Assembly (NCBI GenBank): GCA_017431745.1
Contig: JAFRKK010000003.1
Span: 3,927-67,926 of the forward strand
Origin: Candidatus Saccharimonadota bacterium
GTDB taxonomy: Bacteria > Patescibacteriota > Saccharimonadia > Saccharimonadales > Saccharimonadaceae
Reading direction: 5' to 3'
DNA: 64,000 nucleotides
Part shown: positions 20,639 to 37,342 of the stretch, piece by piece
Numbering within the stretch: the stretch's first letter is position 1
How the letters are laid out: every line of letters begins with the position of its first letter
Made by a program: the position numbers and the translations under genes
The notes under the pieces: model-generated
What the model was told of the DNA's origin: nothing
The model's database searches: none
Seen by the model: only the letters and a program-made list of their open reading frames with translations

Positions 20639-21820
20639 ATGTATTTAGCAGTTTTGGGGCGACAAAGTGAGATATCAGTAGCGGAACTTGAGACGCTGTT
20701 TGATGATGTGAAAAAAAAGAATGATTTTTTGGCGAGTTTTGATAGTGATAGTGCGCCAAATATTGATAAACTGGGTGGAAGCTTGAAATTGGCGGAAAAG
20801 CTAGATATGAAACCGTTAGAGTATTTAACAGAACTACCAGAAGGGAAAATAACGGTTGGAGTATCAGACTATTCCAAAAAGGCTTCGCGAAAAACTGCTT
20901 CAATGGAGGCACTAAAACTTAAAAAGATTTTAGTGCGATATGGACGTAGTGTGCGGGTGGTGGAGAATAAAGAAGCAGTTTTATCTACGGCGACATCACT
21001 TCATAATGGCCTGTCGGGGAAAAATGAGCGAAAAGTAGAGCTTATTAAGGTTGATAATGATTGGTATAAAGTAATCGGCGTGCAAGATATCGATGCTTAC
21101 GCTAAACGTGACCAAGCGAGGCCGGCAAGAGATGCTAAAGTTGGAATGCTACCACCGAAGTTGGCTCAAATCTTAATTAATTTATGTGGTCCGCTTAAAC
21201 CTGTTTCAACTATACTAGATCCGTTTTGTGGAACTGGTGTGGTGCTACAAGAGGCTCTTCTGATGGGCTACCATGCCTATGGGACTGATTTAAATGAAAA
21301 AATGATAGAATATTCTGACAAGAATTTACGGTGGCTAAGCGAGAAAGACTTTTTTCTGGGACATTTCGGAGGTTACGACCGAGAATTAGGGCGCTCCGCC
21401 CGTGACGACGGGCCGGAGCGACCCGTGTCCCAGAAAAAATGTACTTTCTCGCTTAGCCAGGGAGATGCTACTAGTTTTCAATGGAAACAGCCCATAGACG
21501 CGGTAGCGTGTGAAGGGTATCTGGGGAAGCCGATGTCGAAGATTCCGACCGAAATGACGTTAAAAGAACAAAAACAAGAGTGTAGTGCAATTGTACTAGG
21601 TTTTCTGAAGAATTTGGCGGGGCAGATTAAGAATGACACTCCAGTAGTGATAGCCGTACCGGCCTGGCTACGGGAGGATGGAACATATTCCCGCTTGAAT
21701 ATCCTTGACGAAATCGATAAACTGGGGTATAATGTTAATAATAAATCGCGCGAGGGGCTTATTTATTGTCGTGAAAAGCAAATCGTAGCGAGAGATATAT
21801 TAATTTTAAGGAAAAAGTAA
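20639..21820 (+). CDS. SAM-dependent RNA methyltransferase, Trm11/TrmM-like (THUMP-associated), with an in-frame palindromic insertion
   Basis: RDQARPARDAKVGMLPPKLAQILIN, ILDPFCGTGVVLQEA, GTDL, GDAT, EGYLG. Confidence 0.8.
   Translation: MYLAVLGRQSEISVAELETLFDDVKKKNDFLASFDSDSAPNIDKLGGSLKLAEKLDMKPLEYLTELPEGKITVGVSDYSKKASRKTASMEALKLKKILVRYGRSVRVVENKEAVLSTATSLHNGLSGKNERKVELIKVDNDWYKVIGVQDIDAYAKRDQARPARDAKVGMLPPKLAQILINLCGPLKPVSTILDPFCGTGVVLQEALLMGYHAYGTDLNEKMIEYSDKNLRWLSEKDFFLGHFGGYDRELGRSARDDGPERPVSQKKCTFSLSQGDATSFQWKQPIDAVACEGYLGKPMSKIPTEMTLKEQKQECSAIVLGFLKNLAGQIKNDTPVVIAVPAWLREDGTYSRLNILDEIDKLGYNVNNKSREGLIYCREKQIVARDILILRKK
21333..21458. repeat. Palindromic mini-element inserted in frame in the methyltransferase gene
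   Basis: Perfect 15-bp arms GGCTAAGCGAGAAAG/CTTTCTCGCTTAGCC, plus TTTTTCTGGGACA/TGTCCCAGAAAAA. The reverse complement of the core closely matches the intergenic element at 35931-35996. Confidence 0.93.
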
Positions 21821-22093
21821 ATGTCACATGTAAAAGCTGGCGGTACCGCCAAGAATATCCATAACAATGCTGGCCAGCGCCTAGGCGTGAAGCGTTTTGG
21901 TGGCCAGAAAGTCAAGAACGGTGAAGTTTTAGTGCGTCAGACTGGTGCTACGAAGATCGCTGGGCCTGGTACTTATATGTCACGTAATTTCACAATTCAC
22001 GCTGCGAAGGATGGTGTAGTCACTTTCGTAAAAACGAAAAAAACACACTTTTCGGGCAAATCTCTTCCAAGAGTGCGCGTAGAAGTTAGATAA
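21821..22093 (+). CDS. rpmA: 50S ribosomal protein L27
   Basis: MSHVKAGG...GQRLGVKRFGGQ...GEVLVRQTG...TIHAAKDGVV. Confidence 0.96.
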   Translation: MSHVKAGGTAKNIHNNAGQRLGVKRFGGQKVKNGEVLVRQTGATKIAGPGTYMSRNFTIHAAKDGVVTFVKTKKTHFSGKSLPRVRVEVR

Positions 22094-22095
22094 TC

Positions 22096-22120
22096 AATAA
22101 CCCCCGAGGGGGTTATTTTT
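22096..22120. terminator. Intrinsic terminator after rpmA
   Basis: AATAACCCCC-GA-GGGGGTTATT followed by a T run. Confidence 0.85.
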
Positions 22121-23185: not shown

Positions 23186-23208
23186 ATAGTTTGTGGTATA
23201 ATCAAGAT

Positions 23209-24267
23209 ATGGCTAAGAAAAAGTCAGCAAAGAAGAAAGCGATTATTTCTTTTCGTACAGTTTTGATGGTTTTGACGGTAATTTTGGTGGCTTATGTAGT
23301 GTATCAAAACTGGCCAGATATTTTGGAGACACTGGATAATATTCAAGATGCAAATGTATTTGTTTTGCTGCTTTTAATTCCAGAGCAATTATTCATGTAT
23401 TATGCTTGTGGACAAATATTCTTTTCTTATTTAAAACATCGGAAAAACGTGAAGGAATTTACCGATAAAGAAATACTGAGGATTTCGACGGAATTGAATT
23501 TTGTGAATCATGCGATTCCGGCGGGAGGAGTTGGGGGATTAGCCTTTTTGACTTATCGTTTGTCGCCGTACGGTGTGACGGCAGGGCAAGCGAGTTTTTT
23601 GTATTTGTTTCGTTATGCGGTAACAACGGTAATTAATTATTTCCAGGCGCTAGTAGCGATTTTGGTGCTATTGATACTTAATTTGATTCCGCGAGAGGCG
23701 ATGTGGATTATTCCGGTGGCGCTTCTCATGAATATGGGGGTTTGCTTCTTCTTGTGGTTCGTGATATTCGTGGCAAGTAGCAGGAAGCGGATTGAAGTTT
23801 TTTCGCGAGCGATTACAAAAATTATGAATTCGGCAGTGACATTAGTGACATTCGGGCACAAGAAAGAAGCGGTTTCACGAGAGAAGATTCATCAATATTT
23901 TTCTGATATTCATGAAAGCGTAAAAATTGCAAAGGAGCACAAAAGATATTTAAAAAAGCCTGCACTATGGGGCTTTATTTATAGTTTCTTGGAAGTTGGG
24001 ACATATTGGATTGTGGCGATATCGCTGGGGCGGCCGGAGCTTTTGCCGTTTATTATGGTGGGGGAGGCGATCGGGTCGGTATTTGACGGAATTGTGCCGT
24101 ATGGATTATACGAGCTTGGTATGGCGGGGGTCATGATTGCTCTAGGCGTGGATTTTCCTACCGCAACGATTGTAACCGTTATGACACGGGTGATTACGTT
24201 GCTGTTTACGATCGTGTCAGGGTCGTATCCGTATTACAAGGCAATTCAAAGGAAAACAGATGACTGA
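23209..24267 (+). CDS. Lysylphosphatidylglycerol synthase-like TM domain protein (YbhN/UPF0104 flippase-like)
   Basis: Multiple TM helices, NHAIPAGGVGG, VPYGLYELGM...TIVTVMTRVITL. Confidence 0.75.
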   Translation: MAKKKSAKKKAIISFRTVLMVLTVILVAYVVYQNWPDILETLDNIQDANVFVLLLLIPEQLFMYYACGQIFFSYLKHRKNVKEFTDKEILRISTELNFVNHAIPAGGVGGLAFLTYRLSPYGVTAGQASFLYLFRYAVTTVINYFQALVAILVLLILNLIPREAMWIIPVALLMNMGVCFFLWFVIFVASSRKRIEVFSRAITKIMNSAVTLVTFGHKKEAVSREKIHQYFSDIHESVKIAKEHKRYLKKPALWGFIYSFLEVGTYWIVAISLGRPELLPFIMVGEAIGSVFDGIVPYGLYELGMAGVMIALGVDFPTATIVTVMTRVITLLFTIVSGSYPYYKAIQRKTDD

Positions 24268-25439: not shown

Positions 25440-25637
25440 ATGGCAGAAAAAATGACTTTAAATCAAAAGATTGAGAAATTAGATGCGGAAGTGGAATGGT
25501 TTTATTCGGATGAGTTTAAATTGGAGGAAGCGGTAGATAAGTACAAAGCTGCAACGAAATTGGCGAAGGAAATTGAGAAGGATTTGAGCGAGCTGAAGAA
25601 CGAGATTGAAGTTTTAAGCGAAGATTTTAGTAAATAG
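25440..25637 (+). CDS. xseB: Exodeoxyribonuclease VII small subunit
   Basis: 65-aa helical protein directly after xseA; LEEAVDKYKAATKLAKEIEKDL pattern. Confidence 0.88.
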   Translation: MAEKMTLNQKIEKLDAEVEWFYSDEFKLEEAVDKYKAATKLAKEIEKDLSELKNEIEVLSEDFSK

Positions 25638-25705
25638 TATTATAAATAAGCGGAAAAGTGCGTAAAAAGGGCTAGACATGAGGATTTTTGTGGTATAATA
25701 GAATT

Positions 25706-25852
25706 GCTATAGTTTTACAATTTAATAAATAGGCTGGTTTTGATACTAGGGCTGGAAAGGAATAATGGCACCGTGAGGATGTTGACCCTTTTCAGTCGGC
25801 TATTTGGCCTATTGGATTGTAAGACTATAGCACCCCTGGCGGTGCCATTTTT
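25706..25852 (+). ncRNA. Candidate structured leader or ncRNA upstream of the FISUMP gene
   Basis: Starts 7 nt after TGGTATAAT (25691-25699). Long outer helix 25706-25734/25807-25831, inner helix 25751-25760/25787-25796, loop 25764-25773 perfectly complementary to 25840-25849. Confidence 0.55.
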
Positions 25853-25912
25853 GTGGAGAAGCAAAGAAGAAGCGTACCGCTTGGGAGAGGTAAACATAAC
25901 AAGAGGTATTAC

Positions 25913-27853
25913 ATGAAGAGCATGAAGAAGTGCTATAGCACTAAACAAGACAAAATAAGCTTAAACAAAATAGACGAGTTAATGAGACTGGTTCGGCATA
26001 GGCGACGTTCCAGCGCCGGTATGTTTTACACTTCTTCTGCCGGCGCTGTGACCTCGCTTATTTTGTGCCTAATGGTGAGCCTGGCCATTACTGGGCTAGG
26101 CGCAAATAGTGCCAATGCAACTTCAGTAATGAGCCTCACAGTAAGTAGCGATACAGTAGCCCTAAACCTCGCCCCTACTCGCGCTACAGGCACCTTTGGC
26201 AAATCTAGTAATATATCTATTACCGCAAAGACCACCAATGCGACAGGATATACTTTAGGTGTAGCGGCAGCTAGTGCGACAGATTATGATAAGTTGAAGA
26301 ATGGTAGTGATTCAATTGATTCCATTACAGAAGCCGTAACCGAAGAAGCTTTCAAAGCATTGAATAATACAGCTTATAACGGTAAGTGGGGCTATCTCCC
26401 TAGCAAACATAACTCTGCTGTTAATACAGATTTTCTCCCAGCGCCAAAAGCTTCTGGCGATATTCTTGATGTTACTACTACAGCTAACACAACAGCCAAT
26501 GAATATTCCCTTGCCATTGGCGCAAGAGTAGACAGTACCACCAAAATGGGCGCCTATTCCAATACTTATAATGTAATCCTAGTTAACAACGCTATACCTT
26601 ATACCATTACTTACATGGACAGTATCATTGGCAGTATGCCGACTGACGTAGATAGCACTTCGGAAAGTGAAACTGTCTATATTTCGGGCAATACGCCAAC
26701 TAGAAGTGGCTACACCTTCAATGGTTGGTGTACAGTAGCGCCAACTCGTTCTACGCTAACTGATACTTGTAGTGGCACAACTTACACCCAGGGTCAGGCT
26801 CACCACATTGATGGTTCAAGTCTCACTAATGATTTAACTCTCTACGCCATGTGGAAACGTAATACCATGCAGAATGTATCTGAATGGGAAAGCACTGTAG
26901 GAGCCGGCGAAGAAACTACAGCAGTAGATACGAGGGATGGTAATGTATATTCAGTGGCTAGACTTTGTATGAGTGCTGCTACGCATACACAACCAGCTCT
27001 AAATACTTGTGATAGAACGATGTTATGGATGACGCAGAACCTAGACCTTAAACTCGGTCCAGCCGGTTCACAAACCCTTACTAATGCAGATACAGACCTC
27101 AATAGTGTATCGTCCTGGACACCAGGTGATACAGCGAAGGTACCAGCAGTGATTACGAATCACGCAACAGGCAGCCCAAGCAACTCCGTGACTGGTTGGA
27201 CCAATAGCAACAACAAACCTTACTGGGCGGAAGGTGGCGACTATTATGTGTATACTAGCGGTAATACTAATACAGACACCATCTATAACAGCATGACAGC
27301 CTGTATTAACGGTGGACATACGGAAGACCAATGTAGACACTACCATGTAGGCAATTACTACAACTGGAGTGCAGCAGTAGCCAGTAACGATACCTCTAGC
27401 ACGACATCTGATCTCACAGTGATGCCAAATTCCATCTGCCCAAAGGGTTGGCGTTTACCGAATGGCTTAACGGGCACTAATGGTAACGAAATCATTACTG
27501 AGTTTAACCAGCTAAGCCTCGCTAATAACATTACAGCAGGGATTACAACCAAGCATGATCAGTCGCCAGGTTCTGGGCAATGGGTAAACACCGGCTGGAC
27601 TTCAACTGGCTTCAATAACTTCCGCTCTACCAGCACTAACCCAGCGGGAAAGCAGGCGCCGATGTACTTTGTCCGCTCGGGCAGCCTCGATGGTACTACG
27701 CTCTACGATTACGGCACGCTTGGCCTCTTGTGGTCTAGTACTTCACAGTATACTACCATTGCTTACTACCTTGACTTCCATTCAGGCGTATTCTACCCGG
27801 CGGGTCAGTATGGTCGCTTCGACGGGTTTCCAGTGCGGTGCGTGGCTCGGTAA
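25913..27853 (+). CDS. Surface protein with an InlB B-repeat and a C-terminal FISUMP (Fib_succ_major, C-lectin fold) domain; probable DGR target
   Basis: N-terminal TM/signal segment; B-repeat YTITY...PTRSGYTFNGWCT...LTLYAMWK; FISUMP motifs GNYYNWSAA, ICPKGWRLP, GLLWSST, GFPVRCVAR. Start at 25913 follows AGAGG. Confidence 0.85.
   Translation: MKSMKKCYSTKQDKISLNKIDELMRLVRHRRRSSAGMFYTSSAGAVTSLILCLMVSLAITGLGANSANATSVMSLTVSSDTVALNLAPTRATGTFGKSSNISITAKTTNATGYTLGVAAASATDYDKLKNGSDSIDSITEAVTEEAFKALNNTAYNGKWGYLPSKHNSAVNTDFLPAPKASGDILDVTTTANTTANEYSLAIGARVDSTTKMGAYSNTYNVILVNNAIPYTITYMDSIIGSMPTDVDSTSESETVYISGNTPTRSGYTFNGWCTVAPTRSTLTDTCSGTTYTQGQAHHIDGSSLTNDLTLYAMWKRNTMQNVSEWESTVGAGEETTAVDTRDGNVYSVARLCMSAATHTQPALNTCDRTMLWMTQNLDLKLGPAGSQTLTNADTDLNSVSSWTPGDTAKVPAVITNHATGSPSNSVTGWTNSNNKPYWAEGGDYYVYTSGNTNTDTIYNSMTACINGGHTEDQCRHYHVGNYYNWSAAVASNDTSSTTSDLTVMPNSICPKGWRLPNGLTGTNGNEIITEFNQLSLANNITAGITTKHDQSPGSGQWVNTGWTSTGFNNFRSTSTNPAGKQAPMYFVRSGSLDGTTLYDYGTLGLLWSSTSQYTTIAYYLDFHSGVFYPAGQYGRFDGFPVRCVAR
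27665..27853 (+). other. Putative DGR variable region (VR)
   Basis: The last 62 codons contain no Asn in an otherwise Asn-rich protein. Many NNC/NNT codons (TAC, GAC, CTC, TTC, AGC) alternate with fixed residues, and the GC-rich end CGGTGCGTGGCTCGG is IMH-like. Confidence 0.6.
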
Positions 27854-27904
27854 GTTTATTGTAATATGTATTGGTGATTTAGGAAAGTGTGGTATAATTA
27901 GCTT

Positions 27905-28687
27905 ATGGATAATAATTATCAAATGCCACCAGTGAATGGGGCACAGCCGATTCAGCCGGCAGGGTCGGGTGCTAGTGTTGGTGCACCAGGGATGCCAATG
28001 GTGCAACAAGTGCAGGTGCCGCCGGAGGCGAAAAAAGACGTAGCAGGCTTAGTTAAAACGATTGTGATTATTATGTTGTCGCTTGTCGCACTGACATTTA
28101 TTGGGCTATTTATTTGGATTATGGTGGAATATAATACTGTGCGAAGCGATGTGGATGGGCAAATTGATGTGGCGGTGGCAGAAGCGAAGGACGAACAAGC
28201 AACAAAAATGGAAGCGGAATTTTTGGAACGGGAGAAATATCCATACAAAGTGTTTGCTGGGCCAGCGGATTATGGGCAGCTAACTTTTGAATATCCGAAG
28301 ACTTGGAGTGTGTATGTGGCGGCAGCGGCGACGGAGGGTGGCGACTTTAATGCATACTTTAACCCGGGACAGGTAGATGCCGTGGGGAAAGATACGATTA
28401 ATGCGCTTAGAGTTTCGATTCGAAACGAGAGTTTTGATAAGGTTACAGAAGAATACCAAAAGGCGATGGACAGGAAAGATTCGGGCCTCACGATGGAATC
28501 GGTGACGATTGGCAAAAACAGTGACATTACGGCGAATCGTTATACCGGTAAGATTCCAAACACAGAACTTTCAGGGTTTATCGTGACATTTAAGATCCGG
28601 GATAAAACCGCAATATTACAAACCGATTCTGTATTATTCCAAGCTGATTTTGATAAATTACTTGGTACAGTTATATTTAACCAGTAA
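27905..28687 (+). CDS. Hypothetical single-pass membrane protein with an extracytoplasmic domain
   Basis: Pro/Gln-rich N-terminus, one TM, coiled segment, globular C-terminus (LTFEYPKTWSVY, PsbP-like motif). Confidence 0.75.
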   Translation: MDNNYQMPPVNGAQPIQPAGSGASVGAPGMPMVQQVQVPPEAKKDVAGLVKTIVIIMLSLVALTFIGLFIWIMVEYNTVRSDVDGQIDVAVAEAKDEQATKMEAEFLEREKYPYKVFAGPADYGQLTFEYPKTWSVYVAAAATEGGDFNAYFNPGQVDAVGKDTINALRVSIRNESFDKVTEEYQKAMDRKDSGLTMESVTIGKNSDITANRYTGKIPNTELSGFIVTFKIRDKTAILQTDSVLFQADFDKLLGTVIFNQ

Positions 28688-31984: not shown

Positions 31985-32020
31985 AAAAAATACCTCCCGA
32001 TTTGTGGGAGGTATTTTTTT
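31983..32020. terminator. Bidirectional intrinsic terminator
   Basis: AAAAAAAATACCTCCC-GATTTGT-GGGAGGTATTTTTTT between convergent genes. Confidence 0.9.
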
Positions 32021-32615
32021 AGCTCATTGATTTTTTGATTTCGTTTACGACTGACTCTACGCCTTTTTTCATCACTAATTCTGGGTGTAATTCTTCATAG
32101 CGTTTGATAGCGTCTGCGATTACTTTCTTTGCTGATTTGACATCTTCAAAAGCCTTTACTTTTGTCGTGCCTGGCTTTTTCAAATCTTTGTAATGGTTGA
32201 AGTGGAATTCGATTTGATTTAAAGTCTGCTTTGGCAAATCTTCCAGAGTTTTGTATGCGTCGCCGTTGTTGCGGTCGTCTTCTGGAACGCAAATGATTTT
32301 GTCATCTACTTCGCCGCCGTCCACGAACTTCATTACACCAAGGATGCGCGCTTTCATCCAAATGCCAGTAGTGAGTGGCTGGTCGGTAATCATTAATACG
32401 TCTAGTTCGTCGCCATCTTCATCTAAGGTCTGTGGGATGAAGCCGTAGTTGCAAGGTTTTGCAAAAGCCATTGGTTCAACTCGGTCTAGCATAAAGCAAG
32501 CATGCTCGCGATCCCATTCGATTTTGTGATTCGAACCGGTTGGGATTTCGATTACGACGTTTAGCTCACCTTTTTCATAGTCCCCCGGCGTCAAGATTTT
32601 GTTAAAATCTGCCAT
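32019..32615 (-). CDS. ppa: Inorganic pyrophosphatase (family I)
   Basis: VVIEIPTGS, LDR, NYGFIPQTLDEDGDELDV, DGGEVDDKII, HFNHYKDL. Confidence 0.97.
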   Translation of the reverse strand: MADFNKILTPGDYEKGELNVVIEIPTGSNHKIEWDREHACFMLDRVEPMAFAKPCNYGFIPQTLDEDGDELDVLMITDQPLTTGIWMKARILGVMKFVDGGEVDDKIICVPEDDRNNGDAYKTLEDLPKQTLNQIEFHFNHYKDLKKPGTTKVKAFEDVKSAKKVIADAIKRYEELHPELVMKKGVESVVNEIKKSMS

Positions 32616-32654
32616 AATATCTCCTTTTGTTATCTTATAATTATATCACAGATA

Positions 32655-33347
32655 TTACATATGTGTTGCCATCCGGGCTAGATTTAGTAATTTGCTATAC
32701 ATTTTGGTGGGGACTTTTATTTTTTGAACTGTTTTTAAATCAGTTGTCATTATTAGACGTAGCATTTTGATTTCGTCTGTTCCGTATTCACCGTGTTCGC
32801 TTTTTGAAAACGAGTCGTTTGCAACATCCCAACTGTAGGTACTGTTTATTGTTAGCTTGTCACCAGTTGTGTCGCGGTATAAATTGATATCTTCGCCGGT
32901 GGCTTTTGTTAGATTTAGCAAAAACCAGCTTTCTACTAGTTCGATGCTTGTGCTGCTGTTTAGTCCTGTTAGGCACTGCTCTACAATATTGAAGAATTCT
33001 GGATTGTCTGAATTTTCGGCTGCGTTGCTGGTTTTTTTCAGAATTGTGCCGGCAAGCTCCATTTTGGTGAAATCTTTGATAATTTCGCTATAGTATTTTA
33101 ACATTTTCGCACCGGTTACTACGCCCATTTCTGAACGACCTAAGTGGATGTTAAAATCGATTAGTGAAAACATTTCGATGTCGCCGGCCAGTTTTGATTT
33201 GGCTTTTCTCACACTTTTGGCGATTGCTGTAATTTTACCTTGAGTGGTTAGAATATTGAGGATACGGTCGGCTTCGCCGTAGTTGGTGCGGCGGAGGATA
33301 ATACCGTTGATGCGAATATCTTTAGTTGGAGCAGTATTTGTCGACAT
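32655..33347 (-). CDS. recO: DNA repair protein RecO
   Basis: GIILRRTNYGEADRILNILT..GKITAIAKSVRKAKSKL OB-fold motif. Confidence 0.92.
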   Translation of the reverse strand: MSTNTAPTKDIRINGIILRRTNYGEADRILNILTTQGKITAIAKSVRKAKSKLAGDIEMFSLIDFNIHLGRSEMGVVTGAKMLKYYSEIIKDFTKMELAGTILKKTSNAAENSDNPEFFNIVEQCLTGLNSSTSIELVESWFLLNLTKATGEDINLYRDTTGDKLTINSTYSWDVANDSFSKSEHGEYGTDEIKMLRLIMTTDLKTVQKIKVPTKMYSKLLNLARMATHM

Positions 33348-33672
33348 AGTTCTTAATCTCCTGTGGCGTCATGGTTGCCTTATCTAGTGTTCCTACTACG
33401 CCATATTCCGACAAATCTTGTTGCTTAAAGTTTAACGTCGATACTATGACAATCGGTATTTTGGCTGTGTCGGTGTAGGATACCAGCTCGTTGAGAAATG
33501 TAAAACCATCGGGGCCATCTAGCATGACATCCAAAAAAATCAAACTTGGTGTTTCGCCAGAACTGATTTTTGCCATTGCTTCAATCGCGTTGCTAAATAC
33601 TCGCGTTTTGGTTTTGCAGGCTCTAGCGATGCATTCGCACATTATTTCGTCGTCGTCAATTATGTAAATCAT
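33322..33672 (-). CDS. Single-domain response regulator (receiver only)
   Basis: IYIIDDD, IFLDVMLDGPDG (phospho-Asp), PIVIVST, LDKA. No output domain. Confidence 0.9.
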   Translation of the reverse strand: MIYIIDDDEIMCECIARACKTKTRVFSNAIEAMAKISSGETPSLIFLDVMLDGPDGFTFLNELVSYTDTAKIPIVIVSTLNFKQQDLSEYGVVGTLDKATMTPQEIKNYVDKYCSN

Positions 33673-34355
33673 ATCTCAAATAAACTCGCTTGTTTAGAAA
33701 TCGGTAACTCTACATAAAAACTTGTACCGTCGCGATGGCGAATTGCGCCAACTGACGCGTTCATGTAGCGGGAAAATTTGGATGCAATGTAAAGTCCCAA
33801 TCCTGAGGAGCCTGGACGCATAGCGATTGAGGTAGGTTTTTTGATGAAGCCGCGTTTTACTTCGCGCCATACATCTACTGGCAAAGCTGGTCCGTAATCT
33901 CGGACTATTACGCGTACTCGGTCACGAAAATCTCGCACAATTAATTCTGCCCTGGTGCCATCACCTGAATAATGCATGGCATTTAGCATAAAATTATAAA
34001 TTACGCTATAAAGTAGGTCGCGGTTGGCAGTTACAAGTCGAGAGCGATTACTGTACTTGACCCAGAGATCGCGTTTGTTGTAGCTGAATAAATATTGTAG
34101 CTCCCTGGTTACATCATCGCAGACTGCGCGAACTGCTACTGGCTCCATGGTAAATAAACCGTCTTCTAGCCGTCTGATTTTGGCTAGGTCGTTGACTTGC
34201 TTCAAAGCTCTCTCGCTGACACTGACCATTTCGTTTCTCATGTGTTCGCCGTCAAAATCCATGCCTGGCAAATTTAGAGCTAATTGACGAAGCACTGCAA
34301 GAGGTGCTTTTAGCTCATGAGTAGCCACTAGTATTCCATCGACCTCCACATCCAT
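33669..34355 (-). CDS. Histidine kinase lacking a sensor domain
   Basis: H-box ATHELKAPL at residue 11, N-box NFMLNAMHY, DYGP, GSSGLGLYI, GTSFYVELP. Confidence 0.88.
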   Translation of the reverse strand: MDVEVDGILVATHELKAPLAVLRQLALNLPGMDFDGEHMRNEMVSVSERALKQVNDLAKIRRLEDGLFTMEPVAVRAVCDDVTRELQYLFSYNKRDLWVKYSNRSRLVTANRDLLYSVIYNFMLNAMHYSGDGTRAELIVRDFRDRVRVIVRDYGPALPVDVWREVKRGFIKKPTSIAMRPGSSGLGLYIASKFSRYMNASVGAIRHRDGTSFYVELPISKQASLFEI

Positions 34356-36774: not shown

Positions 36775-37342
36775 TTATTATTATAGCATAGGTTTCGACA
36801 CCGAGACGCTTTAAGGATAAGATAGCGATGACGATAGCAAGAATGGTGACGATAGTACTGACAGTGCCGGCGATGGCGAGGCTGCCAGTGCTAAAAATGG
36901 CACCGATAAGAGGAGTGAGTAAGGTGGCGCCGCAAGTGGGGCAACCAGCGCCGAGAGCGATTAGTCCAGTGATAATACCGGCTTTCTCGAGACTTTCGGC
37001 ATTTTGACCCTTTTTTGTGCGCTTTTTGTCCCAGAGGAGAGTAATGAGGCCGATAAGGATTCCTTGGAGTGTGGCGATTAAAAAGATTGGAAGCCAGTCA
37101 AGAAACGGTTGATTAATGCCAAAAATTGCAAGGAAACTGCTCCAGATGATCTGGAGATTTTGCGGGAAACCGAGAGCACCCATGAGCTCAAATTTGCTGG
37201 TACCGCCGGACAAAAGGTTCATGAGCATGCCAAAAAAGATAAAGCTAGGGATTGCCCCGTACCAAAATTTACGTTCTTTGGTGGCGAGCAAGATACCTTT
37301 ACCCGCTAAAACAAATTCGTCGAGCCATTTCCTCCAATTCAT
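36701..37342 (-). CDS. Hypothetical 4-TM membrane protein with a CxxC motif
   Basis: Hydrophobic segments and GAGCPTCGA. 3' end overlaps the start of the DsbA-like gene. Confidence 0.75.
   Translation of the reverse strand: MNWRKWLDEFVLAGKGILLATKERKFWYGAIPSFIFFGMLMNLLSGGTSKFELMGALGFPQNLQIIWSSFLAIFGINQPFLDWLPIFLIATLQGILIGLITLLWDKKRTKKGQNAESLEKAGIITGLIALGAGCPTCGATLLTPLIGAIFSTGSLAIAGTVSTIVTILAIVIAILSLKRLGVETYAIIINEKYLAKKAKQTSKEKKEKSEKSS

Follow-up and report, generated by a model that had tools for sequence, protein, structure and literature searches.

A conserved leader RNA with a loop–tail pseudoknot, a candidate attenuator, precedes variable secreted-protein genes in Saccharibacteria

In a 64,000-nt stretch of the genome of a Candidatus Saccharimonadota bacterium (contig JAFRKK010000003.1, positions 3,927 to 67,926; hereafter, the window), the gene of a large secreted protein with a FISUMP domain is preceded by an RNA leader that folds into a long rod. 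The apical loop of the rod (element E1) is complementary to the 3′ tail that follows it (element E2), and the helix formed by the two runs directly into a stretch of U's. The same architecture, with compensatory changes, was found in 40 further homologues, which together with the window's leader make a family of 41 from Saccharibacteria of ruminant and gut metagenomes. The leader is almost certainly a conserved structured RNA of a so far uncatalogued family. Judged from the sequences, a cis-acting attenuator, in which a long-range pseudoknot serves as the terminator helix and the pairing of the tail with a third element (E3) is the read-through alternative, is the function that we favor, with about even confidence.

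Fold of the leader and its conservation

A long structured RNA beginning at the predicted transcription start had been proposed in an earlier, sequence-only reading of the window, and the pairings described there are all present, where it placed them, in the sequence between 25400 and 26200. The outermost pairing joins GCTATAGT (25706–25713) to ACTATAGC (25824–25831). It is followed by TTACAAT (25715–25721) with ATTGTAA (25817–25823), by AATAGGC (25728–25734) with GCCTATT (25808–25814), and, in the upper rod, by GCTGGAAAGG (25751–25760) with CCTTTTCAGT (25787–25796), which includes two G-U pairs. The apical loop sequence AATGGCACCG (25764–25773) has its exact reverse complement in CGGTGCCATT (25840–25849), followed by T5 (25848–25852), and the complementarity extends to 15 nt (25764–25778 with 25835–25849) with one G·G mismatch. 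A second AATGGCACCG, at 36896, was discarded: its surrounding sequence is unrelated, and the count of the motif in the window is not above chance.

As a duplex, the 15-bp E1:E2 helix is worth about −24 kcal/mol and ends inside the U5. In the window, E2 begins 2 nt past P1, the lower helix of the rod; the E1 and E2 arms are 54–58 nt apart, and the sequence between them forms half of the rod. E1:E2 thus has the stable G+C-rich helix ending 0–2 nt before a U run that is expected of an intrinsic terminator. It is not the simple short-loop hairpin of the classical form, which is matched only by a weak local hairpin of 5 bp. The whole leader folds with −57.9 kcal/mol on the plus strand (z = −5.0, equaled by 0 of 200 shuffles) vs −32.5 kcal/mol (z = −1.4) on the minus strand. 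The gap stems from G-U pairs, and the structure therefore belongs to the plus-strand transcript; in all 41 members, the minimum free energy of the rod is lower on the plus strand.

Members of the family were gathered by protein-guided look-ups, a pattern scan of metagenome contigs, and a covariance-model search. Contigs with homologues of the downstream protein carried leaders of the same build (L081, L083 with two copies, L084, and L088). The L081 leader is diverged though the protein is 96% identical, and its P1 contains compensatory changes from U-A to C-G, from G-C to A-U, and from U-A to C-G. The L084 leader, obtained by protein alone, has 15 loop–tail pairs in a different sequence (AAAUCGGCAUCGUGC with GCACGGUGUCGAUUU). 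Scanning metagenomes with a pattern of the conserved core returned 51 stretches. Thirty-two of these fold like the window's leader and score 67–120 bits with the covariance model; the remaining 19 (L090, 094, 095, 097, 099, 104, 106–109, 112, 115, 117, 121, 125, 128, 130, 136, and 138) were dropped as chance matches after folding and model scoring. The covariance model R1 added two copies, L069 and L079. The only match in a viral contig was a chance match that was also met in the metagenome scan, and a phage origin of the leader was rejected. One homologue with 84% protein identity, L082, has another leader (340–488), with a P1-like start (TTGTGATAAACTTAACAAT) and without E1, E2, and the U run; leaders are thus swapped or lost between close paralogues.

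Covariation was evaluated on a structure-blind MAFFT alignment (A5, 39 sequences), with 500 shuffles and slid-partner controls. In P1, 94.7% of cells are paired, and both-side changes occur in 15 of 17 outer pairs. In E1:E2, 97.3% of cells are paired and six pairs show both-side changes, including G-C/A-U at column pair 111/183 and A-U/G-C/U-A at 113/181, both outside the positions fixed by the search pattern. None of the 500 shuffles reached the observed pairing in P1 and E1:E2, and sliding the partners by 1–3 columns lowered pairing to 35–47%. RNAalifold, run on a smaller alignment, independently picked the loop–tail helix as consensus. P3, the upper helix of the rod, is not alignable by sequence; the segments flanking the loop beat shuffles in 40 of 41 members, with a median z of −4.3. 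The collection of leaders of FISUMP paralogues for covariation, which the sequence-only reading had proposed, therefore bears out a leader structured from the predicted +1. That reading had also left a choice between a long-range pseudoknot and alternative folds. Both have a counterpart here: loop–tail pairing covaries, as in what would be an H-type pseudoknot (loop pairing outside its hairpin), and the tail of the window's leader has two alternative partners besides E1, the GCACC arm of the local hairpin and the downstream element E3. The CACC..GGUG arms of the local hairpin were set by the search pattern, and their conservation is informative only in L084, L069, and L079; L084 has a compensated 6-bp stem, GACACC/GGUGUC.

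Across the family, the rod of ~43 bp is built of P1 and P3 with, between them on the 5′ side, a U-rich bulge or a small hairpin. P1 measures 15–24 bp and mostly begins with GUGCAA; the lower rod has a mean of 27.7 positions in total. The bulge, or the loop of the hairpin in its place, bears a (G/A)UUUU motif in nearly all members. The apical loop, 20–30 nt long, has an A-rich 5′ part followed by E1 (consensus AAUGGCAYCGUAAGG), and the 3 nt preceding E1 are mostly A. P1 and E2 are separated by −1 to 3 nt (mean 1.0), and the E2 consensus, CCUUGCGGUGCCAUU, is followed by UUU and then by G or A. The three T's after ..ATT are found in 41, 40, and 41 of the 41 members, the last two lying outside the search pattern. 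The invariant columns of A5 fall in E1, in E2, and in the CAC with which P1 ends on its 3′ side; among unpaired nucleotides, just two motifs recur, the U-rich bulge and the A-rich loop flank. Positions of the elements are listed in Table 1.

The A-rich flank, the G+C-rich helix, and the U5 make E1:E2 resemble the stem of an L-shaped intrinsic terminator, which favors a co-transcriptional attenuator. An attenuator governed by a leader peptide was rejected: among 31 members, no open reading frame with a Shine-Dalgarno sequence is conserved in position or length. The same anatomy bears on the possibility that the leader is a metabolite or ion riboswitch, with the junction of the rod and the pseudoknot forming an aptamer whose ligand stabilizes or prevents E1:E2. 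Such a riboswitch would look much like this RNA, which is a 5′ leader, has alternative pairings and a conserved U-rich motif at its junction, and has a pseudoknot overlapping the expression platform; the lack of an Rfam match would make it an orphan class. We nevertheless consider this unlikely. Conservation is concentrated in the base of P1 and in the E1 and E2 helices, and there are few invariant unpaired nucleotides, so that a metabolite-binding aptamer is not favored. The internal loops differ widely among members, as does the position of the junction (a 5′ junction of 7–31 nt in all members but one, and a P3 of 9–26 bp), and the genes concerned code for adhesin-like surface proteins with no metabolic link. 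No specific ligand, such as a cyclic dinucleotide, is supported.

Table 1. Features of the leader and its gene in the window, with the retroelement cassette of a homologous locus
Feature	Coordinates	Strand	Description and basis
Putative −35-like hexamer, TAGACA	25673..25678	+	15-nt spacer to −10; predicted from sequence
Extended −10 promoter, TGGTATAAT	25691..25699	+	Ends 6 nt before the rod; sequence
P1, 5′ strand	25705..25727	+	Pairs with 25810–25832; minimum free energy and constrained folds, covariation
P2, CUGGU-UUUGAU-ACUAG	25734..25749	+	Small 5′-side hairpin bearing the family's conserved U-rich motif; folds
P3, 5′ strand, GGCUGGAAAGG	25750..25760	+	Pairs with 25787–25797; folds, duplex vs shuffles
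E1, AAUGGCACCGUGAGG	25764..25778	+	15 nt of the apical loop, complementary to the tail; sequence, RNAalifold, covariation
P3, 3′ strand, CCUUUUCAGUC	25787..25797	+	Folds, duplex vs shuffles
P1, 3′ strand	25810..25832	+	Folds, covariation
Local hairpin, GCACC-CCUGGC-GGUGC	25830..25845	+	Weak alternative; overlaps last P1 base pairs; terminator scan
E2, CCUGGCGGUGCCAUU	25835..25849	+	3′ tail, partner of E1 (pseudoknot / split terminator stem); sequence, RNAalifold, covariation
U run (T5)	25848..25852	+	Directly after and overlapping the E1:E2 helix; sequence
E3, CGUACCGCUUGGGA	25873..25886	+	Degenerate copy; complementary to E2, alternatively to the Shine-Dalgarno region
Shine-Dalgarno sequence, AAGAGGU	25901–25907	+	Sequence
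Start codon, ATG	25913–25915	+	Sequence
646-aa secreted protein	25913..27853	+	Listeria-Bacteroides repeat, C-terminal FISUMP (Fib_succ_major) domain
L081 retroelement cassette region	5059–7356 of L081

The third element and the proposed switch

Past the U run, most members carry an E1-like element, E3 (for example, AAGUGGCACCGCAAGGGGG), which is Watson-Crick complementary to the tail and to its CCCC linker. E3 always lies 22–31 nt after the tail, and the E2:E3 stems, up to ~20 bp long and perfect, have z < −3 relative to shuffled downstream sequence in 17 of 31 members. E3 covaries with the tail: in L102, for instance, the tail is CCCCAAGUGGUGCC and E3 is UGGUACCACUUGGGGG. In the window, the E3:E2 duplex lies at +24, the position that it has in the family, and has an energy of −20.9 kcal/mol, matched by 5 of 200 shuffles. 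Two conserved U-G wobbles of E1:E2 (in 21 of 39 and 27 of 39 sequences) are replaced by C-G pairs in E2:E3, and the later-made E3 should therefore displace E1 from the tail. Some members, L098 (5540–5650) and the equivalent part of L111 among them, have 140–150 nt from the tail to the start codon, with repeated GGGGG tracts.

The attenuator that we propose would operate as follows. Transcription would begin at the start of P1, with a margin of at most 2 nt, and the nascent RNA would fold into the rod. E2, emerging right after P1, would zip 15 bp onto the pre-formed loop E1, and this helix could be extended to 18 bp if the A-rich flank of the loop pairs with the U run. The G+C-rich helix followed by UUUUU would then constitute an intrinsic terminator whose arms are joined only through the folded rod, that is, as a pseudoknot. 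Polymerases stopping at the U run would release a stable leader RNA of ~150 nt, while those that read through would make E3, a better Watson-Crick partner that would pull E2 off the loop. In the window and in L081, an E3 that is not engaged with E2 may pair with the Shine-Dalgarno sequence, which would add translational control. The pseudoknot, when formed, would thus be the OFF state for both transcription and translation, and its absence the ON state. Whether the loop is available could be set by a protein, another RNA, a small molecule, or Mg2+. What the sequences establish is the family with its rod, the covarying complementarities of E1:E2 and E2:E3, the place of the promoter, the U run, and the link to one kind of gene; we infer termination at the U run, alternation of the tail pairings in vivo, and some control of loop availability.

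The same chain of pairings could instead act mainly on translation or mRNA stability. The rod and the E2:E3 hairpin would then be 5′ stabilizers or RNase III substrates, the E1/E2/E3/Shine-Dalgarno chain would gate ribosome binding, and the U run would be incidental. Length and perfection of the E2:E3 stems agree with this, and so do predicted accessibilities. When E2 is blocked, as with the pseudoknot on, the predicted probability that the Shine-Dalgarno sequence is unpaired is 0.17 in both the window and L081; freeing E2 raises it to 0.93 in the window and to 0.81 in L081. Strong predicted switching was also obtained for L043, L083b, L111, L120, L124, and L084. The effect is inconsistent across the family, with accessibility going up in 11 members and down in 5 (Wilcoxon p = 0.16). 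Sequestration by E3 as a family-wide feature was therefore rejected as not significant and retained for the window's subgroup only. The near-invariance of the U run and the A-rich, terminator-like flank of E1 also speak against an incidental U run, and we regard control mainly at this level as improbable.

Promoter elements precede the rod throughout the family. TATAAT is found in 29 of 41 members, TG two bases upstream is also found in 29 of 41, TTGACA-like hexamers stand at the place equivalent to the window's −35-like element in many, and P1 begins 4–6 nt past the −10 hexamer in 39 of 41. In one sequencing run, X21, whose type we guess to be RNA, 25665–25816 is covered exactly, and many short contigs cover the tail shared by the family, 25826–25854. 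The leader is the only substantial covered part of a 12-kb stretch, in which two small fragments (21364–21394 and 21788–21847) are also covered. The leader contigs end by 25854–25869, with no cover downstream of the U run. This pattern fits an abundant, terminated leader, with the reservations that the type of the run is guessed and that contigs cannot show ends. Classical terminators with an A-tract, a hairpin, and a U-tract occur in the same genome, for example at 22096–22117 and 34396–34378.

An independent gene for a trans-acting small RNA, with its own promoter and terminator, that travels with FISUMP genes and is protected at its 3′ end by the pseudoknot would account for part of these observations: the extended −10 promoter, the terminator-like 3′ end, the very stable closed fold, and the cover, in X21, of the leader and not of the coding sequence. 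The RNA is, however, always co-oriented with the same kind of gene, 33–141 nt upstream of it, and, in the window, the stretch from the U run to the gene contains no convincing promoter. Furthermore, the covariation with the tail of an E3 that lies past the U run is sensible only in read-through transcripts. The probability that we assign to a small RNA of this kind is accordingly low.

Several points weigh against the attenuator itself. About 14 of 31 members have a weak or divergent E3, and sequestration of the Shine-Dalgarno sequence by E3 is, as described above, not family-wide. For most members, the search pattern fixed the E1 and E2 cores, and the covariation there therefore rests on the unfixed positions plus L084, L069, and L079. 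With a linker of ~1 nt, E1 can reach E2 only if the rod doubles back on itself. In a fixed two-helix bundle, the length of the lower rod should rise with that of P3; it does not (r = −0.31), and such a bundle was rejected. Agreement is limited to the means, 27.7 for the lower rod vs 15.3 for P3 plus 15 for the pseudoknot. A terminator stem with a structured insert of 60 nt is unorthodox. Finally, the evidence for the leader RNA consists of Logan contigs from a single run whose type is guessed. Cover in two true metatranscriptomes is limited to the ribosome-binding site and the early coding part of a homologue, and three others have none.

The downstream gene and its locus

Every member with enough downstream sequence has a large secreted protein on the same strand, 33–141 nt after the RNA. 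These proteins have a beta-rich N-terminal part and a C-terminal FISUMP domain. In L081, L085, and L086, the gene is followed by one for a 277–334-aa protein and then by one for a 414–416-aa reverse transcriptase. The last ~190 nt of each of the three genes match an inverted repeat just past the reverse transcriptase gene, and the mismatches fall at adenines of this template in 24 of 25 cases in L081, 20 of 20 in L085, and 18 of 18 in L086. Mismatches that are nearly all at repeat adenines are the signature of a diversity-generating retroelement (DGR). The template repeats (L081 7165–7356, L085 8499–8684, and L086 8266–8450) lie after the reverse transcriptase gene and are inverted relative to it and to the variable region. 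The 277–334-aa accessory protein has no Pfam or NCBIfam match and is far bigger than the usual accessory protein Avd, which has about 130 aa.

The window gene has the hallmark of a DGR target: its 3′-terminal variable region (27662–27853, 192 nt) has 24 mismatches to the L081 template, and 21 of these fall at template adenines. The name “FISUMP gene” given in the sequence-only reading was right as to the domain, whose Pfam and NCBIfam scores are just under the cut-offs; a more fitting description of the product is a DGR-type variable protein whose C-terminus is FISUMP/C-lectin-like. DGR targets with FISUMP domains have been reported earlier (PMC11661182). No DGR template, reverse transcriptase, or accessory gene was found anywhere in the 64-kb window; the DGR cassette, 2.6 kb long in L081, is missing with precise ends from between the stop codon and GTTTATTGTAATATG. 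It follows that the target has been orphaned or that it is served in trans.

Neighboring genes in the window are xseA, xseB, and hisS. The relatives of the xseA gene are all from Candidatus Saccharibacteria or Nanosyncoccus genomes of ruminant guts. In these 80 relatives, xseB is followed directly by a homologue of the window's 27905–28687 gene, and neither blastn nor nhmmer found a leader copy at the same position. Since xseB of the relatives adjoins the next gene, promoter, leader, and gene (about 25640–27853) represent a lineage-specific insertion. A contig of X21 joins the leader promoter (from 25665) to an inverted gene start at 23208–23270, which indicates that the cassette is located elsewhere in another strain.

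Some further observations on the locus were made. GC skew is very strong and even across the window (+0.14 to +0.37) except in two 2-kb bins, 26001–28000 (the bin of the FISUMP gene, −0.02) and 32001–34000 (+0.03), which suggests foreign or recently moved DNA in both. A tRNA gene lies upstream of the leader in L101 (821–894, 56 nt away) and L103 (866–939, about 625 nt away) and may mark an integration hot spot for the cassette. Inside the coding region of the window gene, 26004–26066 is strongly structured (CAGCGCCGG...CCGGCGCTG, −34 kcal/mol over 80 nt) and, in rumen metagenome contigs, has a depth about 30 times that of its surroundings (1176 vs 34, X1); among the fetched loci, only L081 has another such stretch.

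The long inverted repeats at both ends of the leader, the insertion between xseB and the next gene, and the DGR cassette behind the gene in L081 might point to an element acting as DNA or in retroelement function (terminal inverted repeats of a miniature transposon, a site of recombination, or an RNA that serves the DGR reverse transcriptase as template or spacer, or in the manner of retron msr-msd), an explanation that is very improbable and largely refuted already by the strand-specific G-U pairs and energies, the fixed place between promoter and gene, the low copy number (model R1 detected the leader once in the window and three times in the 1.3 Mb that the 80 related xseA loci add up to), and the absence of similarity to the variable region or template repeat. 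The leader and the gene have no repeat in common. As far as the flanks of the leaders are available, most contain no reverse transcriptase, and L085 and L086, which are DGR loci, have no leader. The leader as DGR template was rejected, the template repeat lying elsewhere, past the reverse transcriptase.

Saccharibacteria are obligate epibionts with tiny genomes, and, to our knowledge, very few of their regulators or regulatory RNAs are known. The leader precedes a surface lectin-like family that is hypermutated by DGRs and whose members are prime candidates for host recognition. A three-element switch that is supported by covariation and can be mutated would provide an experimental handle on the timing of surface-lectin production, and the covariance model offers a means of annotating the leader in genomes of the Candidate Phyla Radiation (CPR). 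A wider scenario, which we put forward tentatively and which probably goes too far, is that of a new class of CPR regulatory RNA, in which a terminator is assembled only when the tip of the rod captures the tail. A signal acting in trans, for which a molecule from the host, a protein, and a further copy of the leader are candidates, would mask or expose the tip and thereby couple production of DGR-diversified, adhesin-like lectins to contact with the host bacterium.

Comparison with known RNAs

At gathering thresholds, a scan of the window with Rfam 15 returned tRNAs only. Relaxing the threshold to E ≤ 10 for 25600–25950 added only chance-level matches to mir-263 (17 bits vs a threshold of 51) and AdoCbl (13 bits vs a threshold of 50), and the leaders at nine other member loci had no match. 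The scans thus rule out a known RNA family and agree with the sequence-only reading, which had recognized no known riboswitch in the leader. In the literature on Saccharibacteria and Patescibacteria, we found no description of a native riboswitch, structured leader, or noncoding RNA of this sort.

Among known RNAs of other kinds, 6S RNA is also a long imperfect rod, of comparable length and with an internal bubble. The leader differs from it in being absent from most close relatives, in being tied to one gene family, and in having the loop–tail pseudoknot, and it is not matched by the 6S models of Rfam. DGR template RNAs and retron msr-msd RNAs share with the leader that a reverse transcriptase can be nearby, and its ends pair as a1 and a2 do in retrons; unlike these RNAs, it is not homologous to the variable region and is mostly found without a nearby reverse transcriptase. 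The riboswitches preQ1-I/II, SAM-II, fluoride, and c-di-GMP-II likewise pair a hairpin loop with a 3′ tail in a pseudoknot that overlaps an expression signal. Their pseudoknots are 4–8 bp long and belong to compact aptamers with many invariant unpaired bases, whereas the leader's helix measures 15–18 bp and is carried by a rod that is long and variable and in which few unpaired bases are conserved.

The closest likeness is to attenuators that use intrinsic terminators. As in these, a G+C-rich helix stands directly before a conserved U run, the 5′ side of its upstream arm is A-rich, the element sits between promoter and gene, and the downstream arm has alternative partners. The leader departs from them in several ways. 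The arms of its helix are some 60 nt apart, and the 5′ arm is provided by the loop that caps a ~43-bp rod, so that the helix is a pseudoknot and not a hairpin. The competitor E3 lies downstream of the U run and not upstream of the terminator, and there is no leader peptide. If the proposed mechanism is true, the terminator would be of an unusual construction, its stem being a long-range pseudoknot. What is new is thus an RNA family in Saccharibacteria; attenuators and intrinsic terminators, the kind to which it would belong, are already known.
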